Virus record (IMG/VR): IMGVR_UViG_3300043256_000135
Span: 12,450-76,449 of that record
Length of the DNA: 64,000 nucleotides
From: a virus
Reading direction: 5' to 3' (one strand)
Position numbers and translations under genes: made by a program. The notes under the pieces are model-generated. The model did no database searches. It saw only the letters and a program-made list of their open reading frames with translations, and was not told the DNA's origin. This document shows, piece after piece, positions 1 to 44,002 of this stretch. Within the stretch, counting starts at the first letter, position 1. Each line of letters starts with the position of its first letter.

Positions 1-761
1 TCGCGGATTTCAACCACGCGGCCCAGAACTCCGCACGTGCGGATGCGATCACCCAGATCGAACTGTCTGGCTTGGGGATCAAGGAGGGTGAAGGTCGGGG
101 CCTCGGTCAGCTGCTCGCATGGTGCGCCCACGGCGAACTCGTAATTCATCTGCCTCCTCGCTGCGCGGATGTCTTCCATCGGCGTAGATTCGGTGGTGTC
201 CCACTTGGTCCCATTGTTCTCGGGCGTGGCAAAGTTGCGAGCCTCGAAGTACTTGATCCCGGCGGATGTGAACTTCCCATCCTCCATGACGGTCAGCTGC
301 TCGCACGTTGCGCCCTCGGCGTATTCGTAATCGTCCGGCGACACGCCCACGCTTGACTCTGTGGCGAATTCCACATCGGCCTTATTCTTCACGGCCCGCG
401 GCCCGACGTTGTCGTCCAGCCACGTCCGAATCTCCTCGGCCCGCGCTGGCGACGGAATGCCGCCGTCCAGGACAAAGCCGCCGACCGCCTCGGGCTCGCG
501 GGTCATGTCCCACAGGTCGCAGATGAACGCGCGGGCGTCGGGTTGCTTCTCGAACTCGTCGCTGATGTACACCATCTGCATCTCGCGGCCCATCTCCCCC
601 AGTTCCTTCATCGTGCCATCGGTCTGGTGTTTCGTGAAGGTGGCCATCTCCCGGTAGGCAATCGCGAAGAACTTGGCCTGATCGTTGCTCGGCATGTGAG
701 CGAACGCTTTGGCCATCTGTCCCACGTCGATGTCGATCTCGGTCTCGCTGGTGAACTTCAC
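1..761 (-). CDS. Hypothetical mosaic protein (>253 aa, 3' end outside window) with an internal direct repeat and a capsid-like segment
   Basis: Not in ORF track because there is no stop in the window. GTG at 761 overlaps the TGA of the upstream gene; frame open to position 1 (MKFTSETEIDIDVGQMAKAFAHMPSNDQAKFF...). Confidence 0.8.
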   Translation of the reverse strand, partial: MKFTSETEIDIDVGQMAKAFAHMPSNDQAKFFAIAYREMATFTKHQTDGTMKELGEMGREMQMVYISDEFEKQPDARAFICDLWDMTREPEAVGGFVLDGGIPSPARAEEIRTWLDDNVGPRAVKNKADVEFATESSVGVSPDDYEYAEGATCEQLTVMEDGKFTSAGIKYFEARNFATPENNGTKWDTTESTPMEDIRAARRQMNYEFAVGAPCEQLTEAPTFTLLDPQARQFDLGDRIRTCGVLGRVVEIR

Positions 762-1048
762 GGGGCCACCTCACCGATGTCGAAGACGTGCGCTACTACC
801 TGACCACCCAGGACTGTCGCGCTCCCCACGTGCTGGCCCAGAGTAACTTCGGGCGGCAGTGGAGTAGCGGTGCCGATGACGGCCAGCGCACGGTTGACGA
901 CGGGGGCGTCAGGCTTTACGTGAGCCCACACGGCCAGCTGGTCATTTGGGGCAGCCACGTACAGGATCGTTGCCCCTTCGGGCATGGGGATCACGTGGTC
1001 CACTTTGTCGAAGTCCAGCAGGTACTTGTAAATGATGTGGTCGGTCAT
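758..1048 (-). CDS. Small phage hypothetical protein (DUF7352-like)
   Basis: MTDHIIYKY...PMPEGATILYV...LAVWAHV...VIGT...VVAHVFD pattern; GGAG RBS and promoter motif upstream. Confidence 0.75.
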   Translation of the reverse strand: MTDHIIYKYLLDFDKVDHVIPMPEGATILYVAAPNDQLAVWAHVKPDAPVVNRALAVIGTATPLPPEVTLGQHVGSATVLGGQVVAHVFDIGEVAP

Positions 1049-1100: not shown

Positions 1101-1811
1101 TTATTTCGTAGGTCGTTTACACCCCTGCGAGCAATCCGATTTTTTGTAGGTAATCTGGGAAATGTATTCGCCAGAGCCACCACATTCTTCGCATATAGCC
1201 TTCGAGTTGGAATTCAGCTTTTTGTCTCGATCGGATTTCGGTGTCACAGGTTTGATGACGTTGCCCTTCGCGTCGAACGCCTTGACGACGGTGCCGGTGC
1301 CACCCCCGGTCGCCATTGGCTTCCCGGTCTTCATTACCGCGGCTAGCTGCGGGCTGATCATGTGGTGCGTCATACCGGTCAGCACTTGGCGCGCGGAGTC
1401 TTCCAGCACGTCGCTCGCGTTGCCCGGGTAATTAGCCAGCACCACGTCGTCCACGGTGTGTTGCTGCTGGTAGCGCGTGAGCGCGTTCGGCTTCACGGTT
1501 CCGTCGGGCTGCACGGTCCACTCGGTCATGGTCGCGCGGTGCACGGTCGTGTTATGCTGGCGGTACTGCTCCAGCTCCACTTCCTTCAATACCTTGCCGG
1601 CGGCTGGGTGCGGCGGTGGGGGCACCACTTCCACGGGAAGCACCACACCCTGGATCTTTGGCGCCAAGGTGATAGCGGCATGGACGCCCGTCGTACTTAC
1701 GTCCATCGACAGGTGGACGACCTGGATCTTCTTGTCCGTGTCTGCGTCGTAGATATCCACGTTGTTCGGATCGCCGACGTTGCCCCGAATGTAGATGCGT
1801 TTGATAGTCAT
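1101..1811 (-). CDS. Hypothetical protein with C-terminal zinc finger
   Basis: 236 aa ORF; CEECGGSG...CSQGC. Confidence 0.7.
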   Translation of the reverse strand: MTIKRIYIRGNVGDPNNVDIYDADTDKKIQVVHLSMDVSTTGVHAAITLAPKIQGVVLPVEVVPPPPHPAAGKVLKEVELEQYRQHNTTVHRATMTEWTVQPDGTVKPNALTRYQQQHTVDDVVLANYPGNASDVLEDSARQVLTGMTHHMISPQLAAVMKTGKPMATGGGTGTVVKAFDAKGNVIKPVTPKSDRDKKLNSNSKAICEECGGSGEYISQITYKKSDCSQGCKRPTK

Positions 1812-2725: not shown

Positions 2726-2934
2726 GATTCTTTCCTCTGGGTTCGCAGAGTCTCATCGCCTTTGATGGTAGCTCCGCAGAATGGACAGAACTTGATTGCA
2801 ATGACGATCTGAGGTTCCCAGGCCAATACAAAGTCGGCCATGTCAGTAGGAACCTCTTCGCCGGCCCGCGTTCCCATGATGCCGACTAGAAAGTGGCGGC
2901 GCATGGTGCAGCAATAAGTTTCCAGTTCACTCAT
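2722..2934 (-). CDS. Small Cys-rich zinc-ribbon protein
   Basis: YCC...IKFCPFCG. Confidence 0.65.
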   Translation of the reverse strand: MSELETYCCTMRRHFLVGIMGTRAGEEVPTDMADFVLAWEPQIVIAIKFCPFCGATIKGDETLRTQRKES

Positions 2935-3581
2935 AACCCCAGCTCCATGTCAGTGCCGCAGCAGCAAGTCGGCAGGCCCACGTCGATCCACTTCTGGGTC
3001 GTGCGCAGAGTATAGCCACACTCAACATCGCTACAGCTCACCTTGATCATGCGGGTGCCTTGCTTGGTAGTCGAGGACTTCGACAGCTCCGCGTGCGGGT
3101 AGGGCCCGAGGTTACCGGTCAGCGCCAGCAACTGGCTGGAGAGCTGCTCTCCAGCCACCGTCGCGGTCATCTTGCCTTCCAGCCCGATGGCCTTGGCCAG
3201 CTTGCGGAACGGCCCCTTGTGGCCCGCATCTTTGCCGACGATGGTGTGGATCAGCTCGTGGATCATGATGTCTAGGACCCGGATGGGCTCGTCCAGCGCG
3301 GGGCTGATGAATATCTCGCAGGTCGCATCGGCACTGCTCTCCGAATGCCACGCCTGCCCGATGGTCTTGCCTCGGCCACCCTTGGGCCAGCCGCAACTCA
3401 GCCTCAACTTTGGGTAGTCGGGCGCTCCCTGCTCGTCGAACAGCGAGCGGACTTCCAGCGCGGCGGCGTTCAGCCACTGCTCTCGGGTCGCGTGCTTCTG
3501 CCCGGTGCATGCTTTCTTTGGCTTGAGCTTCTCGCGCAGCTTGGTCCGCACTGCGCTGTTGAGTTTCATGATTGGGTCCAT
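2931..3581 (-). CDS. SprT-like zinc metallopeptidase
   Basis: HELIH (HExxH), GHKGPF third ligand, C-terminal Cys ribbon. Confidence 0.8.
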   Translation of the reverse strand: MDPIMKLNSAVRTKLREKLKPKKACTGQKHATREQWLNAAALEVRSLFDEQGAPDYPKLRLSCGWPKGGRGKTIGQAWHSESSADATCEIFISPALDEPIRVLDIMIHELIHTIVGKDAGHKGPFRKLAKAIGLEGKMTATVAGEQLSSQLLALTGNLGPYPHAELSKSSTTKQGTRMIKVSCSDVECGYTLRTTQKWIDVGLPTCCCGTDMELGL

Positions 3582-3638: not shown

Positions 3639-4217
3639 TTACCCTTTCTCATCCCAAATCTGATCGACCAACCCCCATGCCACGGCCAGCTCCGCGGTGA
3701 AATACTTGTCGGATTTTCCGGCAAAGATCCTTGCCCAGTGGGGGGCAGGCTTTTTGGTGTAGGCTGCGAGCAGGCGGGCGTATGTGGCCATTTGTACCTT
3801 GGCGGCCTCGGCGAGGCTCTTCAGGTAGAGTGGCGGGATGTTCTCGGGCACGTCGGACAGGGCCACGTCATGCAGCATGAAAGTGACGTTCTCGCTGGCG
3901 TACCGGTAGCCCTTCTCCCCGCATGCGACTAGCAGGGGTGCAGCGCTTTGGCACTTGCCCAGGGCGACGGTGTGGACCGGGGCGGATATGGTTCGGGTCA
4001 CGTCGTGCAGGGCGAACGCTTCGTCTAGGTCACCGCCGTACGATGAGACGTACAGCTCGATGGGTTCCTTGTTCACGTCGGCCAGCAGGTAAAGCCCACG
4101 GATGGCGCGGCCGACGGTGGCCTCTTCAACACCGCCGTGCAGGAAGATGCGGCGCCCGGCGATGTCCACGCCGTGCTCCAGGGCGGCTTCGATGCGCGCG
4201 TTGGTTAGGCGGGCCAT
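3639..4217 (-). CDS. clpP: ClpP-family protease proteolytic subunit
   Basis: RRIFLHGGV, YVSSYGGD, GKCQSAA (Ser), FMLHD (His), DKYFTAELAVAWGLVDQI (Asp). Confidence 0.9.
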   Translation of the reverse strand: MARLTNARIEAALEHGVDIAGRRIFLHGGVEEATVGRAIRGLYLLADVNKEPIELYVSSYGGDLDEAFALHDVTRTISAPVHTVALGKCQSAAPLLVACGEKGYRYASENVTFMLHDVALSDVPENIPPLYLKSLAEAAKVQMATYARLLAAYTKKPAPHWARIFAGKSDKYFTAELAVAWGLVDQIWDEKG

Positions 4218-41395: not shown

Positions 41396-42391
41396 TCAGT
41401 TGACGATCGTGATGTAGAACTGACCGAGGTCGGCCGAGACCAGCTTCTGGTCGAAGGCCATCTGGATCTCGATCATGTCGGACTCACGCTTCTCGTCGCG
41501 GATGCGCTTCACGCGCATGCCGAGAGCACCGGCGCCCAAGAGGCCGGTCCAAGAGAAGGTGTATCCGGCGCTCGGGACGTAGAGCCCGGGGCTCGGCGCG
41601 GAGTAGACCAGCAGAGCGGACTTGCCGCCGATGAGGTCGATGCTGTCCGCAGCACCTTCAGTTGCCGAGTTGACGACCGAGTCCATGACCAGAACCTCTT
41701 CCAGCTCGAAGAGGGCGGCCAAGTTCTGGCGCATGACGATGGCGGGGCCATTCGTCTGTCCACGGTCCAAGCGCCCGACGATGTCGGGGTGATCCAACAG
41801 AGCGTCGTAAACCTCGCGGCCCACGACCATCTTGTTGGGCCTGAAGCCCGTGCGTGCCTGCACCCGACGCTTACCGGCGCGAACGTCCTCAATCGGGGTC
41901 GAGTCCGCGCGGTCCCAGCGGCCTACCTCATTGGTAGACGGGGACGCGGAGTCAACACCGGTCTGGTCGGTCGTCCAGAGGCCGCTTCCGAAGAAGTCGG
42001 TGACCCACTGGAGTTCCTTCCGGATCATGCCCGCCTGAGACAGCCCTTCGGTCATCTCGCGGTCGGCCTGGAGCGGGGAATCGTAGTTCGCCCGGACCTG
42101 ATCGGCCAGCATCTCGTGCAGTGCCCACACATCGCAGGCGTAGCTGTCCGTGCTTACCTCGTGGGTGCGCTGAGCGGACAGGGCGCCGGGGGCGCGCTTT
42201 TTCATCTCGTCACGGAACCAAGCTCCGCGAGGGATGGTGAAGTACTTGTCAGTCTGCTTTGCGACGGACAAGACAGGGAAGACCCGATCAGCGATGAATG
42301 CCTCGGGGTTCTGAGCGAACGCGATTGCGATCGTGGTCAGTGGCCGATCGACATGAACGTCACCGCGACCCGGCTGGTTGATAGGTGCCAT
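41396..42391 (-). CDS. Major capsid protein (lambda gpE-like, HK97 fold)
   Basis: HVDRPLT.IAI, FIADRVFP, WD..DSTPIED, RPNKMVVG, PSAGYTF. Confidence 0.88.
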   Translation of the reverse strand: MAPINQPGRGDVHVDRPLTTIAIAFAQNPEAFIADRVFPVLSVAKQTDKYFTIPRGAWFRDEMKKRAPGALSAQRTHEVSTDSYACDVWALHEMLADQVRANYDSPLQADREMTEGLSQAGMIRKELQWVTDFFGSGLWTTDQTGVDSASPSTNEVGRWDRADSTPIEDVRAGKRRVQARTGFRPNKMVVGREVYDALLDHPDIVGRLDRGQTNGPAIVMRQNLAALFELEEVLVMDSVVNSATEGAADSIDLIGGKSALLVYSAPSPGLYVPSAGYTFSWTGLLGAGALGMRVKRIRDEKRESDMIEIQMAFDQKLVSADLGQFYITIVN

Positions 42392-42832: not shown

Positions 42833-44002
42833 TTAGGAGCCGGCCAGCTGCGAGTGCAGCTTGAGGCCCTCGGGGGTATCCAGGGCTACCGTGTAGGCGC
42901 GCTCTGGGGAAAGGGTGGAATCGTTCTCCATGAGGCCCTTGGCGATGCCCGTGATCAGGGTATGAGCGTCGGCGCCTTCACCGTTGCCATCGTTGCTCGT
43001 GCCGAGCGTCTCGAACGCCTTGGCCATGCCCGCGTCCTTGGAGAGCAGAATTGCCGTGACGTCCTCGCGCTTCTCGACCGGAAGGGTCTCGATAGCTTCG
43101 AGCAGGTCAGCCTTCGGGCCGATCTCGCCGGTCAGGTGCTTCAGCTCTTCGCCGGCCTGCTTCTCGAACCCGGCGCGCTTCGCCAGCTTCTCGGACTTCT
43201 CGACGCGCTCTTCGGCCTTGTCCGCGCGCTGCGCAGCCTTGACCAGTCGTTGGTCGTCTGACTTGAGGAACCTATCGCCATCGCGCGAGGTGTAAACGAC
43301 GGGATCGGCTTCGGTCGCGTTCTTGACGATCGCGTCCTTGTCTTCGGACTTCAGGAACTCGCCCTGGCCCTCAGACTCCAGCCCGTCGAAATGGGCGCGC
43401 TGCTCGGGGGACAGCTTGACGATCTGCTCGGCACGCTCAGCGCGCTGCTCGGACTTCGCCAGCTCTTCGGGGGTGATCACCGTCTCTTCGGTGACCTTTT
43501 CTTTCTTCGACATGGTGATGTCTCCGGATTCGCCGAGGGGCTCGGCGGTAGCACTTGCCTGGGTTTCGTCTGACGCGAGCGAGGCAAGAAAGCCCTCGGC
43601 CAGTATTTCGTTGGTGATGCTTTCGTCGGCCTTGACCAGGGCGGATAGCCCGTGGCTGTGACCTTCTGCATCAGAAATGAGAATGTTGCCGGCATCGTCC
43701 ATGATCCAGTCGTGAACGTGGCCGTCGGCGAAGCTAGTCTGCCCAGCCTTCAGCTCGGCCATTCCCTCGCTGGACGCACTGATCAGCACGATGCTGTGGG
43801 AGTGCCCGCCGGTGAAGGTGGTCATAGCCAGCCGGTTTTTCTGGATTGGCTCCACGGTGACAGTATCCGCCGCACGCTTCAGGATTGCAATGCGTGCAGG
43901 ACCGTGGGCGGGGTTGTCCACAAGGCTGATTTCATCCAGGCGGAATTTCGATATCCGACGCCGCCGCTTGGGCTTGACCGGATCTTGTGCATGGCTGCTC
44001 AT
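42833..44002 (-). CDS. Scaffolding protein with N-terminal protease strand and His repeats
   Basis: LDEISLVDNPA, three GHxH repeats, acidic coiled coil; upstream of cement and capsid. Confidence 0.75.
   Translation of the reverse strand: MSSHAQDPVKPKRRRRISKFRLDEISLVDNPAHGPARIAILKRAADTVTVEPIQKNRLAMTTFTGGHSHSIVLISASSEGMAELKAGQTSFADGHVHDWIMDDAGNILISDAEGHSHGLSALVKADESITNEILAEGFLASLASDETQASATAEPLGESGDITMSKKEKVTEETVITPEELAKSEQRAERAEQIVKLSPEQRAHFDGLESEGQGEFLKSEDKDAIVKNATEADPVVYTSRDGDRFLKSDDQRLVKAAQRADKAEERVEKSEKLAKRAGFEKQAGEELKHLTGEIGPKADLLEAIETLPVEKREDVTAILLSKDAGMAKAFETLGTSNDGNGEGADAHTLITGIAKGLMENDSTLSPERAYTVALDTPEGLKLHSQLAGS

Follow-up and report, generated by a model that had tools for sequence, protein, structure and literature searches.

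Capsid-like Segments in a Family of Phage Accessory Proteins: Possible Mimics of the Phage's Own Head Protein

Introduction

What is a short piece of a major capsid protein doing in a separate, non-structural gene of the same phage, held between two direct repeats? Capsid proteins trigger several bacterial immune systems, among them CapRel, Lit and Avs7/8/10 (bioRxiv 10.64898/2026.01.04.697583; PMC9712102) and type I Thoeris. The conserved capsid surfaces that immune proteins read are hard for phages to mutate.

The stretch of DNA analysed here (the window) is 64,000 nucleotides long and spans bases 12,450-76,449 of a complete phage genome of 76,449 bp with direct terminal repeats. The genome has a G+C content of 60%, carries almost all of its genes on the minus strand and was probably recovered from a marine sediment metagenome, the one sequencing run listed as containing this DNA; no RNA run was listed. 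An earlier note on this DNA had drawn attention to a minus-strand open reading frame (ORF) at the left edge of the window, in which two 42-nt repeats enclose a capsid-like peptide, and had read the arrangement as a repeat-bounded, exchangeable epitope cassette that might act as a decoy. A mimic or decoy role for the peptide, judged from its sequence, is possible; the cassette fared far less well.

The Accessory Gene and Its Surroundings

The minus-strand ORF at positions 1-761 is a real gene, as the earlier note had it, and its product is 500 amino acids long once the ORF is extended in the genome (L001:11708-13210, minus strand). The protein is referred to here as P0001. The window holds the 5' part of the gene (1-761, residues 1-253), which starts with a GTG at 761 and is open to the left window edge; the gene has a GC3 of 0.81, and the N-terminus of P0001 aligns with the starts of its homologues. 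Features within the gene are given below in window coordinates and lie on the same strand. Directly upstream is a small gene of 96 amino acids (MTDHIIYKY..., 758-1048, minus strand) with no family match. Its TGA stop and the GTG of P0001 overlap, so that the two genes may be translationally coupled. The small gene has a homologue in the metagenome contig L083 (1707-1991), at the same place upstream of a family member, the gene order there being a SprT-like gene, the small gene and the family member.

The surroundings of the P0001 gene are non-structural, with genes for a SprT-like protein, a ClpP-like protease, a dNMP phosphatase and an RNA ligase, and the head module lies far away. The SprT-like zincin (2934-3581, minus strand) has a HELIH motif and a C-terminal Cys-rich ribbon and belongs to phrog_6361, of unknown function; it is also present at L083:886-1458, so that its synteny with the accessory family is conserved. 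The ClpP-like protease gene (3642-4217, minus strand) matches head maturation and ATP-dependent protease PHROGs (best E=5e-13) and has nucleotide-metabolism and accessory genes around it. The head module is about 38 kb away and has an apparently separate protease-scaffold gene of its own at 42833-44002, identified by eye from the sequence. The RNA ligase gene (L001:8154-9248, minus strand; phrog_548, E=4e-32) lies in the same accessory arm as P0001.

With non-structural neighbours and with modules that are shuffled within its family, the P0001 gene behaves as an accessory gene. A search with the family profile A2 found no member of the P0001 family in 18 long records of phages with related capsids, and the family is therefore dispensable for head assembly.

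A Segment Resembling the Capsid A-Domain

The major capsid protein gene of this phage (41396-42391, minus strand) encodes 331 amino acids of the gpE family (PF03864, 6.3e-8; phrog_1005, 3.9e-81; PDB 3bjq, 7e-15), and its closest phage relatives are the capsids of Roseobacter RDJL Phi 1, Pseudomonas KPP23 and Rhizobium RHph_Y52 (~48-50%). The pairing of KWDTTESTPMEDIRAARR in P0001 with RWDRADSTPIEDVRAGKR in this capsid (41876-41917), from which the whole question arose, is indeed identical at 10 of 18 positions. BLASTP aligned P0001 residues 178-206 with capsid residues 149-178 (13/30 identical, pairwise E=1e-5). This segment, termed motif A, occupies 144-230, with a core from W187 to M206 at 144-203, and is picked up by BLASTP, by a capsid HMM (13.2 bits at HMM positions 149-177) and by a motif HMM. 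The PHROG for the major head protein, phrog_29, reached P0001 residues 178-207 at E=0.055. The idea that a capsid profile would recognize the spacer thus held for profiles closer to this capsid and failed for Pfam, in which neither P0001 nor its 76-aa repeat-to-repeat segment matched PF03864 above the gathering score.

In the capsid, the original of motif A runs from W159 to P185 (41837-41917), as aligned by hhalign with the family motif profile, and is the start of the conserved A-domain block. Its invariant or near-invariant residues are W159, P166, R171, G182 and P185, and the positions that motif A has in common with the capsid (Trp, Pro, Ile, Glu-Asp, Arg, Gly, Pro) are those that vary little or not at all among the aligned capsids. 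The opening motif W...P-I-E-D-I/V-R...G-x-x-P is present in P0001 in its first ~21 positions; the copy stops after these ~21 of ~31 module positions, exactly at the start of the second repeat copy, and could be decaying. Recent DNA capture from the phage's own capsid gene was considered and rejected, as 5 of the 10 identical residues share codons, which is what chance and codon usage predict. Since there is no codon-level identity to the capsid gene, the likeness is held at the protein level.

Whether so short a likeness exceeds chance was judged above all by two forward tests, neither of which involves a choice of segment. For the first, all 40 family proteins were scanned with a capsid HMM made from 120 homologues of the capsid. 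This HMM matched with its positions 149-191 in about 10 of the 40, at the coordinates of the module, and its scores for P0023 (14.9 bits), P0001 (given above) and P0006 (8.1 bits) compare with 7.9 bits for the best of 4000 shuffled family sequences. For the second, the 40 family proteins were compared with all 1514 six-frame ORFs of this phage, and besides P0001's own gene and its paralogue the capsid was the sole ORF matched by several family queries (six, best E=1.9e-4), other ORFs being reached by one or two queries at E>0.06.

Reverse tests used family profiles that contain no capsid sequence, but they are partly circular because their training segments were chosen by eye and by a regular expression patterned on the capsid motif; only the forward tests escape this. 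Read with that in mind, profile A2 matched three places in this genome, namely the P0001 gene, the paralogue and the capsid (E=2.8e-7), and in the 18 related-capsid phage records it found capsid genes only, in 7 of the 18 and always with the same profile positions. A motif-A HMM built from eight members without P0001 ranked the capsid first among the 1514 ORFs (E=1e-8), with P0001 second (1.4e-5), and in 71 other capsid loci (372,890 aa in six frames) it gave 32 matches at E<=0.01, all of them capsid ORFs. With hhalign, motif A and the capsid were aligned over 27 columns with a probability of 95.3 and P=2.3e-8.

A Second Capsid Piece and the Make-up of the Family

About 40 family proteins were retrieved by an exhaustive search. 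Their hallmark is a conserved N-terminal helical domain of about 90 amino acids (residues 1-90 in P0001, 492-761), detected by HMM in 27 of the 40 and predicted by AF2 with a pLDDT of ~95, and nearly all of them end in a nearly invariant CxxCxGxG...C-x2/3-C tail. In P0001 this zinc tail reads CPECGGAGE...PCSRGC (residues 475-497), with the CxxCxGxG and the second Cys pair both present. The middles of the proteins are a patchwork of modules. One of these is the full motif A module, W-x5-7-P-I-E-D-I-R-K-A-K...G-x-x-P, which is found in about 12 of the 40 members, for example as GWDLADSSPIEDIRKAKDEI in P0023, as SWNNPPGDIMEDMRKAKAAIEADTGLKP in P0009 and in two copies in P0018.

The capsid HMM matched a second region, its positions 14-51, in other members, with P0039 scoring 18.2 bits. 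The capsid original of this motif B is AFIADRVFPVLSVAKQT (residues 31-47, 42251-42301, minus strand), which is copied in other family members; it is not present in P0001. In P0039 the copy GFIRDKVFPKLKMAKQTNQYTT stands against AFIADRVFPVLSVAKQTDKYFT of the capsid. Motif B appears as EFIADKVFP or EFISDKVFP in P0010, P0032, P0035 and P0009, and as GFISHRVFP in P0005, P0017 and P0023, always just before the zinc tail. A family-only motif-B HMM ranked the capsid first in the genome (E=0.0012) and gave 12 matches in the 71 capsid loci, all capsid, and hhalign aligned motif B with the capsid at a probability of 88.5 (P=2.8e-6). This capsid and 3bjq can still be aligned in two blocks, which begin with the capsid originals of motifs A and B.

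Three of the motif B carriers, P0032, P0035 and P0039, have another N-terminal domain and form part of a second family. The gene next to the small upstream gene (1101-1811, minus strand, 236 aa) is also of this second family by family comparison; its product has an 'IYIRGN...YDADT' N-terminal domain and a C-terminal CxxCGGxGE...C-x3-C tail like that of P0001, from the shared CxxCxGxG...C-x3-C type. The second family comprises P0031, P0032, P0035, P0036, P0039 and P0040, and its three carriers have motif B before a second zinc tail.

Judged by these sequence comparisons, the capsid likeness is statistically real, conserved across the protein family and not special to P0001. Core-protein echoes in the P0001 family, compared with the ORFs of this phage, were of the capsid only. 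A portal-like stretch of P0001 at 378-485 reached just 7/14 in BLASTP (E=2.8), no better than chance, and was rejected.

One way to discount all this would be to regard the capsid-like pieces as functionless relics of illegitimate recombination, or as coincidental helix-start sequences. The patchwork nature of the family agrees with such an origin, as does the 79-aa P0033, which is made of two P0001 pieces; the P0001 copy of the motif is truncated; S/T-P-x-E-D-I-R is a common, generic helix start, and a similar SPARAEEIR occurs upstream in P0001. In addition, profile searches of Pfam and PDB gave no capsid match; the family profile, when run against all PDB sequences, missed the distant solved capsid 3bjq and gave weak KOW matches only. 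Against relics or coincidence, motif A is kept in ~12 members whose shared domains are just 25-50% identical and whose flanking linkers cannot be aligned, and its conserved positions are those that are invariant in the capsid. Furthermore, recurrence is seen for two distinct capsid pieces, one of which extends to a second family whose N-terminal domain is unlike that of the first, and in 372,890 aa of six-frame translation the motif HMMs matched capsid ORFs exclusively. The order of the motifs in the accessory proteins, A then B, is the reverse of that in the capsid, and these are therefore not decayed capsid genes. On balance, relics or coincidence seem improbable.

The Two Direct Repeats

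The repeats themselves are as the earlier note described them. The first copy in the reading direction (290-331, peptide YEYAEGATCEQLT) and the second (104-145, peptide YEFAVGAPCEQLT), which abuts the truncated motif A, are identical at 37 of 42 nt, whereas the 1500-nt gene, shuffled by codon 200 times, gave direct matches over 42 nt of 24-31 at best. They enclose 144 nt, and their start-to-start spacing of 186 nt places this spacer in frame. The element has two copies in the whole genome, the next best match being 26/42, and the flanks of the two copies, compared in register, are unrelated. Nine of the ten residues common to both copies use the same codon, including the rare GCA (P=0.007 from genome codon usage), and four of the five changed codons are non-synonymous. 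Shared codons together with mostly non-synonymous changes point to a recent duplication or conversion at the DNA level that has been drifting neutrally, and not to a conserved peptide.

The homologues tell how the arrangement may have come about. Among the ~40 family proteins, the repeat peptide is confined to P0001, with two copies, and P0004, with one. P0004 is the closest full-length homologue (41%) and has its single repeat copy followed by the DGKFT block, with no motif A, so that P0001 differs from it by a gain of ~45 residues, namely motif A and the second repeat copy. The block DGKFT...KYFEAR (234-281), common to P0001 and P0004, is not capsid-like: the residues 'DGKFT...NF' had been thought to recall the same segment of gpE-family capsids, and they lie outside every capsid alignment, all of which start at about residue 178, and are present in the motif-less P0004. 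A candidate explanation in which the repeat peptide plus 'KYFEAR' would be the second half of the full module, as in P0009 and P0018, was dropped, since an HMM of that half matches neither P0001 nor the capsid.

If the two 42-nt repeats bounded an exchangeable epitope cassette, with capsid-like spacers swapped in and out, one could point to genuine in-frame repeats whose DNA is related, and to a family that is modular as a whole. But there are two genomic copies and no array; the repeat peptide is found in two members only, with one copy in P0004 beside the DGKFT block and no motif; and none of the other motif-bearing members (~11) has the repeat. With the repeat peptide in just P0001 and P0004 and the motif elsewhere repeat-free, the homologues do not show constant repeats with variable spacers. 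Past position 1, where the earlier note had proposed to look for further repeat-spacer units, the gene encodes beta-barrels and the zinc tail only. Neither three or more regular repeats nor constant repeats with variable inserts were found, and Rfam and Tandem Repeats Finder returned nothing for the region. The contigs of the one available run, a marine sediment metagenome, showed one form, with no joints or variants, though contig data carry little information here. An exchangeable cassette is thus very improbable, and the two repeats appear, from their sequence, to be a local duplication scar and no part of any mechanism.

Predicted Structure

The repeats and motif A all lie in a low-confidence linker of P0001 (residues 128-232, 66-380; AF2 pLDDT 32-67), in which the AF2 model has short lone helices at residues 166-176 and 196-209 only. 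The confident parts of the model are the N-domain, one barrel (residues 370-420) and the zinc tail. In the model of P0009, motif A is a lone helix (residues 170-185, pLDDT ~73) between disordered stretches, and motif B has a pLDDT of ~40. Both models combine a helical N-domain with linkers, small barrels and a zinc knuckle, and no HK97 fold (N-arm, E-loop, P- and A-domains) was found in either. As motifs A and B sit in low-confidence linkers and in reversed order, they would behave as short linear mimics and not as a decayed capsid domain.

Searches of Pfam, PHROG, NCBIfam, PADLOC and PDB gave no family match, and the PADLOC models at E<=0.1 gave none for P0001, P0009, P0023, P0039 or the two neighbouring genes. 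Fold searches returned generic small barrels only, for residues 327-434 of P0001, the BFVD rows being without meaning at a TM of ~0.1; over residues 327-434 VIA-align gave Z scores of up to 6.2 to PilZ, F1 N-terminal and phage neck barrels, and in a comparison with KOW/SH3-like barrels the family profile was weak on uL24 and Spt5 KOW (E ~1-5). For the zinc tail, DnaJ_CXXCXGXG of Pfam did not match P0001, and the NCBIfam anti-TRAP model (RtpA) reached relatives only, at 17.8 and 14.4 bits against a cut-off of 65. P0001 is like DnaJ-type zinc finger proteins (the DnaJ Cys-rich domain, BSD2/OR, anti-TRAP) in having CxxCxGxG and a second Cys pair, but unlike them in having a single knuckle and no J-domain and in scoring below every curated threshold. 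Complex prediction of the capsid with P0001 residues 140-262 returned no verdict (score 0.00).

There was no match to GenBank phages by tblastn with P0001 and P0009, family-alignment locus scans of viral and metagenome contigs found no relatives, and a scan with the N-domain matched two short metagenome contigs and none of the viral or genome contigs.

What Might the Motifs Compete For?

Because the motif copy recurs across the whole family, it looks like deliberate molecular mimicry. P0001 is a mosaic accessory protein in which a helical domain at the N-terminus is followed by a long flexible linker, by small beta-barrels and, at the C-terminus, by a DnaJ-like zinc knuckle. Its linker motif copies the opening of the A-domain (Trp, loop and first helix) of the phage's own gpE-family capsid, and relatives carry a second copy, of the N-terminal FIADRVFP stretch of the capsid. 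In the reading we favour, the motifs would act as mimics and rival newly made capsid protein in binding some partner by which these conserved segments are read, most likely a host immune sensor of capsid protein, with P0001 serving as an antagonist or bait and its folded domains perhaps supplying valency or added activity. The repeats would be a scar of a recent duplication or recombination, in which a P0004-like block became joined to the motif and the motif was truncated. We give this reading, with a host capsid sensor as the target, a probability of roughly 40%, ahead of a target in the head machinery, then functionless relics and, far behind, the repeat-bounded cassette.

The capsids from which the motifs would be taken (PF03864, HK97 fold, 3bjq) share with P0001 the Trp-loop-helix A-domain opening W-x6-P-I-E-D-V/I-R...G-x-x-P, and with its relatives the N-terminal stretch F-I-A-D-R-V-F-P. 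Unlike them, P0001 has no HK97 fold and no PF03864 match, and the accessory pieces, of ~20-30 residues each, are found in floppy linkers and in reversed order.

In the HK97 fold, the A-domain forms contacts within capsomers. An alternative partner is the head machinery of the phage itself (capsid subunits or the protease-scaffold), to which the motifs would bind as part of a dispensable assembly helper or placeholder, of ejected head cargo, or of a weapon against head assembly in competing phages whose capsids are related. Motif A is the start of the A-domain, a penton- and hexon-forming region (bioRxiv 10.64898/2026.01.04.697583), and motif B is the N-terminal stretch before the E-loop, so that both come from regions of self-association. 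The zinc tail can be counted on the same side, as zinc fingers of this DnaJ-like CxxCxGxG kind typify dedicated assembly chaperones (BSD2, OR), and so can the sub-threshold anti-TRAP matches of the tail in relatives. This is countered by the location of the gene far from the head module, by its absence from all 18 related-capsid phage records, which means that it is not needed for assembly, and by folded domains that match no head-protein family. A head-machinery target is unlikely, although it comes next after a host sensor. Were it the right one, short capsid pieces would have been reused as portable binding tags.

A host sensor is ranked first because immune receptors read the conserved part of the A-domain or short capsid motifs: Avs7/8/10 bind the conserved hexon-forming A-domain region, while short motifs of the capsid are what Lit and CapRel recognize (bioRxiv 10.64898/2026.01.04.697583; PMC9712102). 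Motif A resembles the segments read by such sensors (the Gol region of T4 gp23 for Lit, the CapRel trigger, the A-domain for Avs7/8/10) in being a conserved piece of capsid. The Gol, CapRel and Avs triggers are parts of real capsids and set off immunity, whereas the piece in P0001 is part of another protein, which is non-structural. A bait could also backfire: bound to an activating sensor, it could switch that sensor on rather than block it.

The closest parallel in concept may be DSAD1. As Garb and colleagues are said to have found in 2022, DSAD1 occupies the site of DSR2 where the tail-tube protein binds. P0001 would be like it in being a phage protein that takes the place of a structural protein at an immune sensor and leaves the sensor inactive. 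To our knowledge, DSAD1 has no sequence resemblance to the tail tube; P0001 differs in that its resemblance would be a copy of a structural protein at the level of sequence.

A bolder version of the host-sensor reading holds that several phage lineages keep accessory proteins displaying the most conserved, least mutable pieces of their own capsids (here the A-domain opening and FIADRVFP) on floppy linkers, as baits that blunt or misdirect capsid-reading receptors; on present sequence comparisons this is doubtful. A literature search turned up no account of capsid mimicry by an accessory protein of the same phage, and the bait reading, if true, would be a form of self-mimicry counter-defence without published precedent. 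A separate, dispensable protein that shows conserved capsid pieces would be a new route round the constraint on mutating the surfaces that immune proteins read. The family offers a concrete handle for tests in its two defined motifs, each with a handful of conserved residues. It also carries a warning for annotation, in that a short capsid-like match in a non-structural gene need not mean a broken capsid gene.

Two smaller observations concern other pieces of P0001. Residues 101-120 (402-461, minus strand) hold the block IPSPARAEEIRTWLDDNVG, which is common to P0005 and P0008 and starts like motif A (S-P...E-E-I-R), with no significant likeness to capsid or portal. The stand-alone P0033 combines the CDFGPY-NAQC-CGKS knuckle (residues 438-455 of P0001) with LGA-RMNT (360-367), and illustrates how freely the pieces of this family are shuffled.
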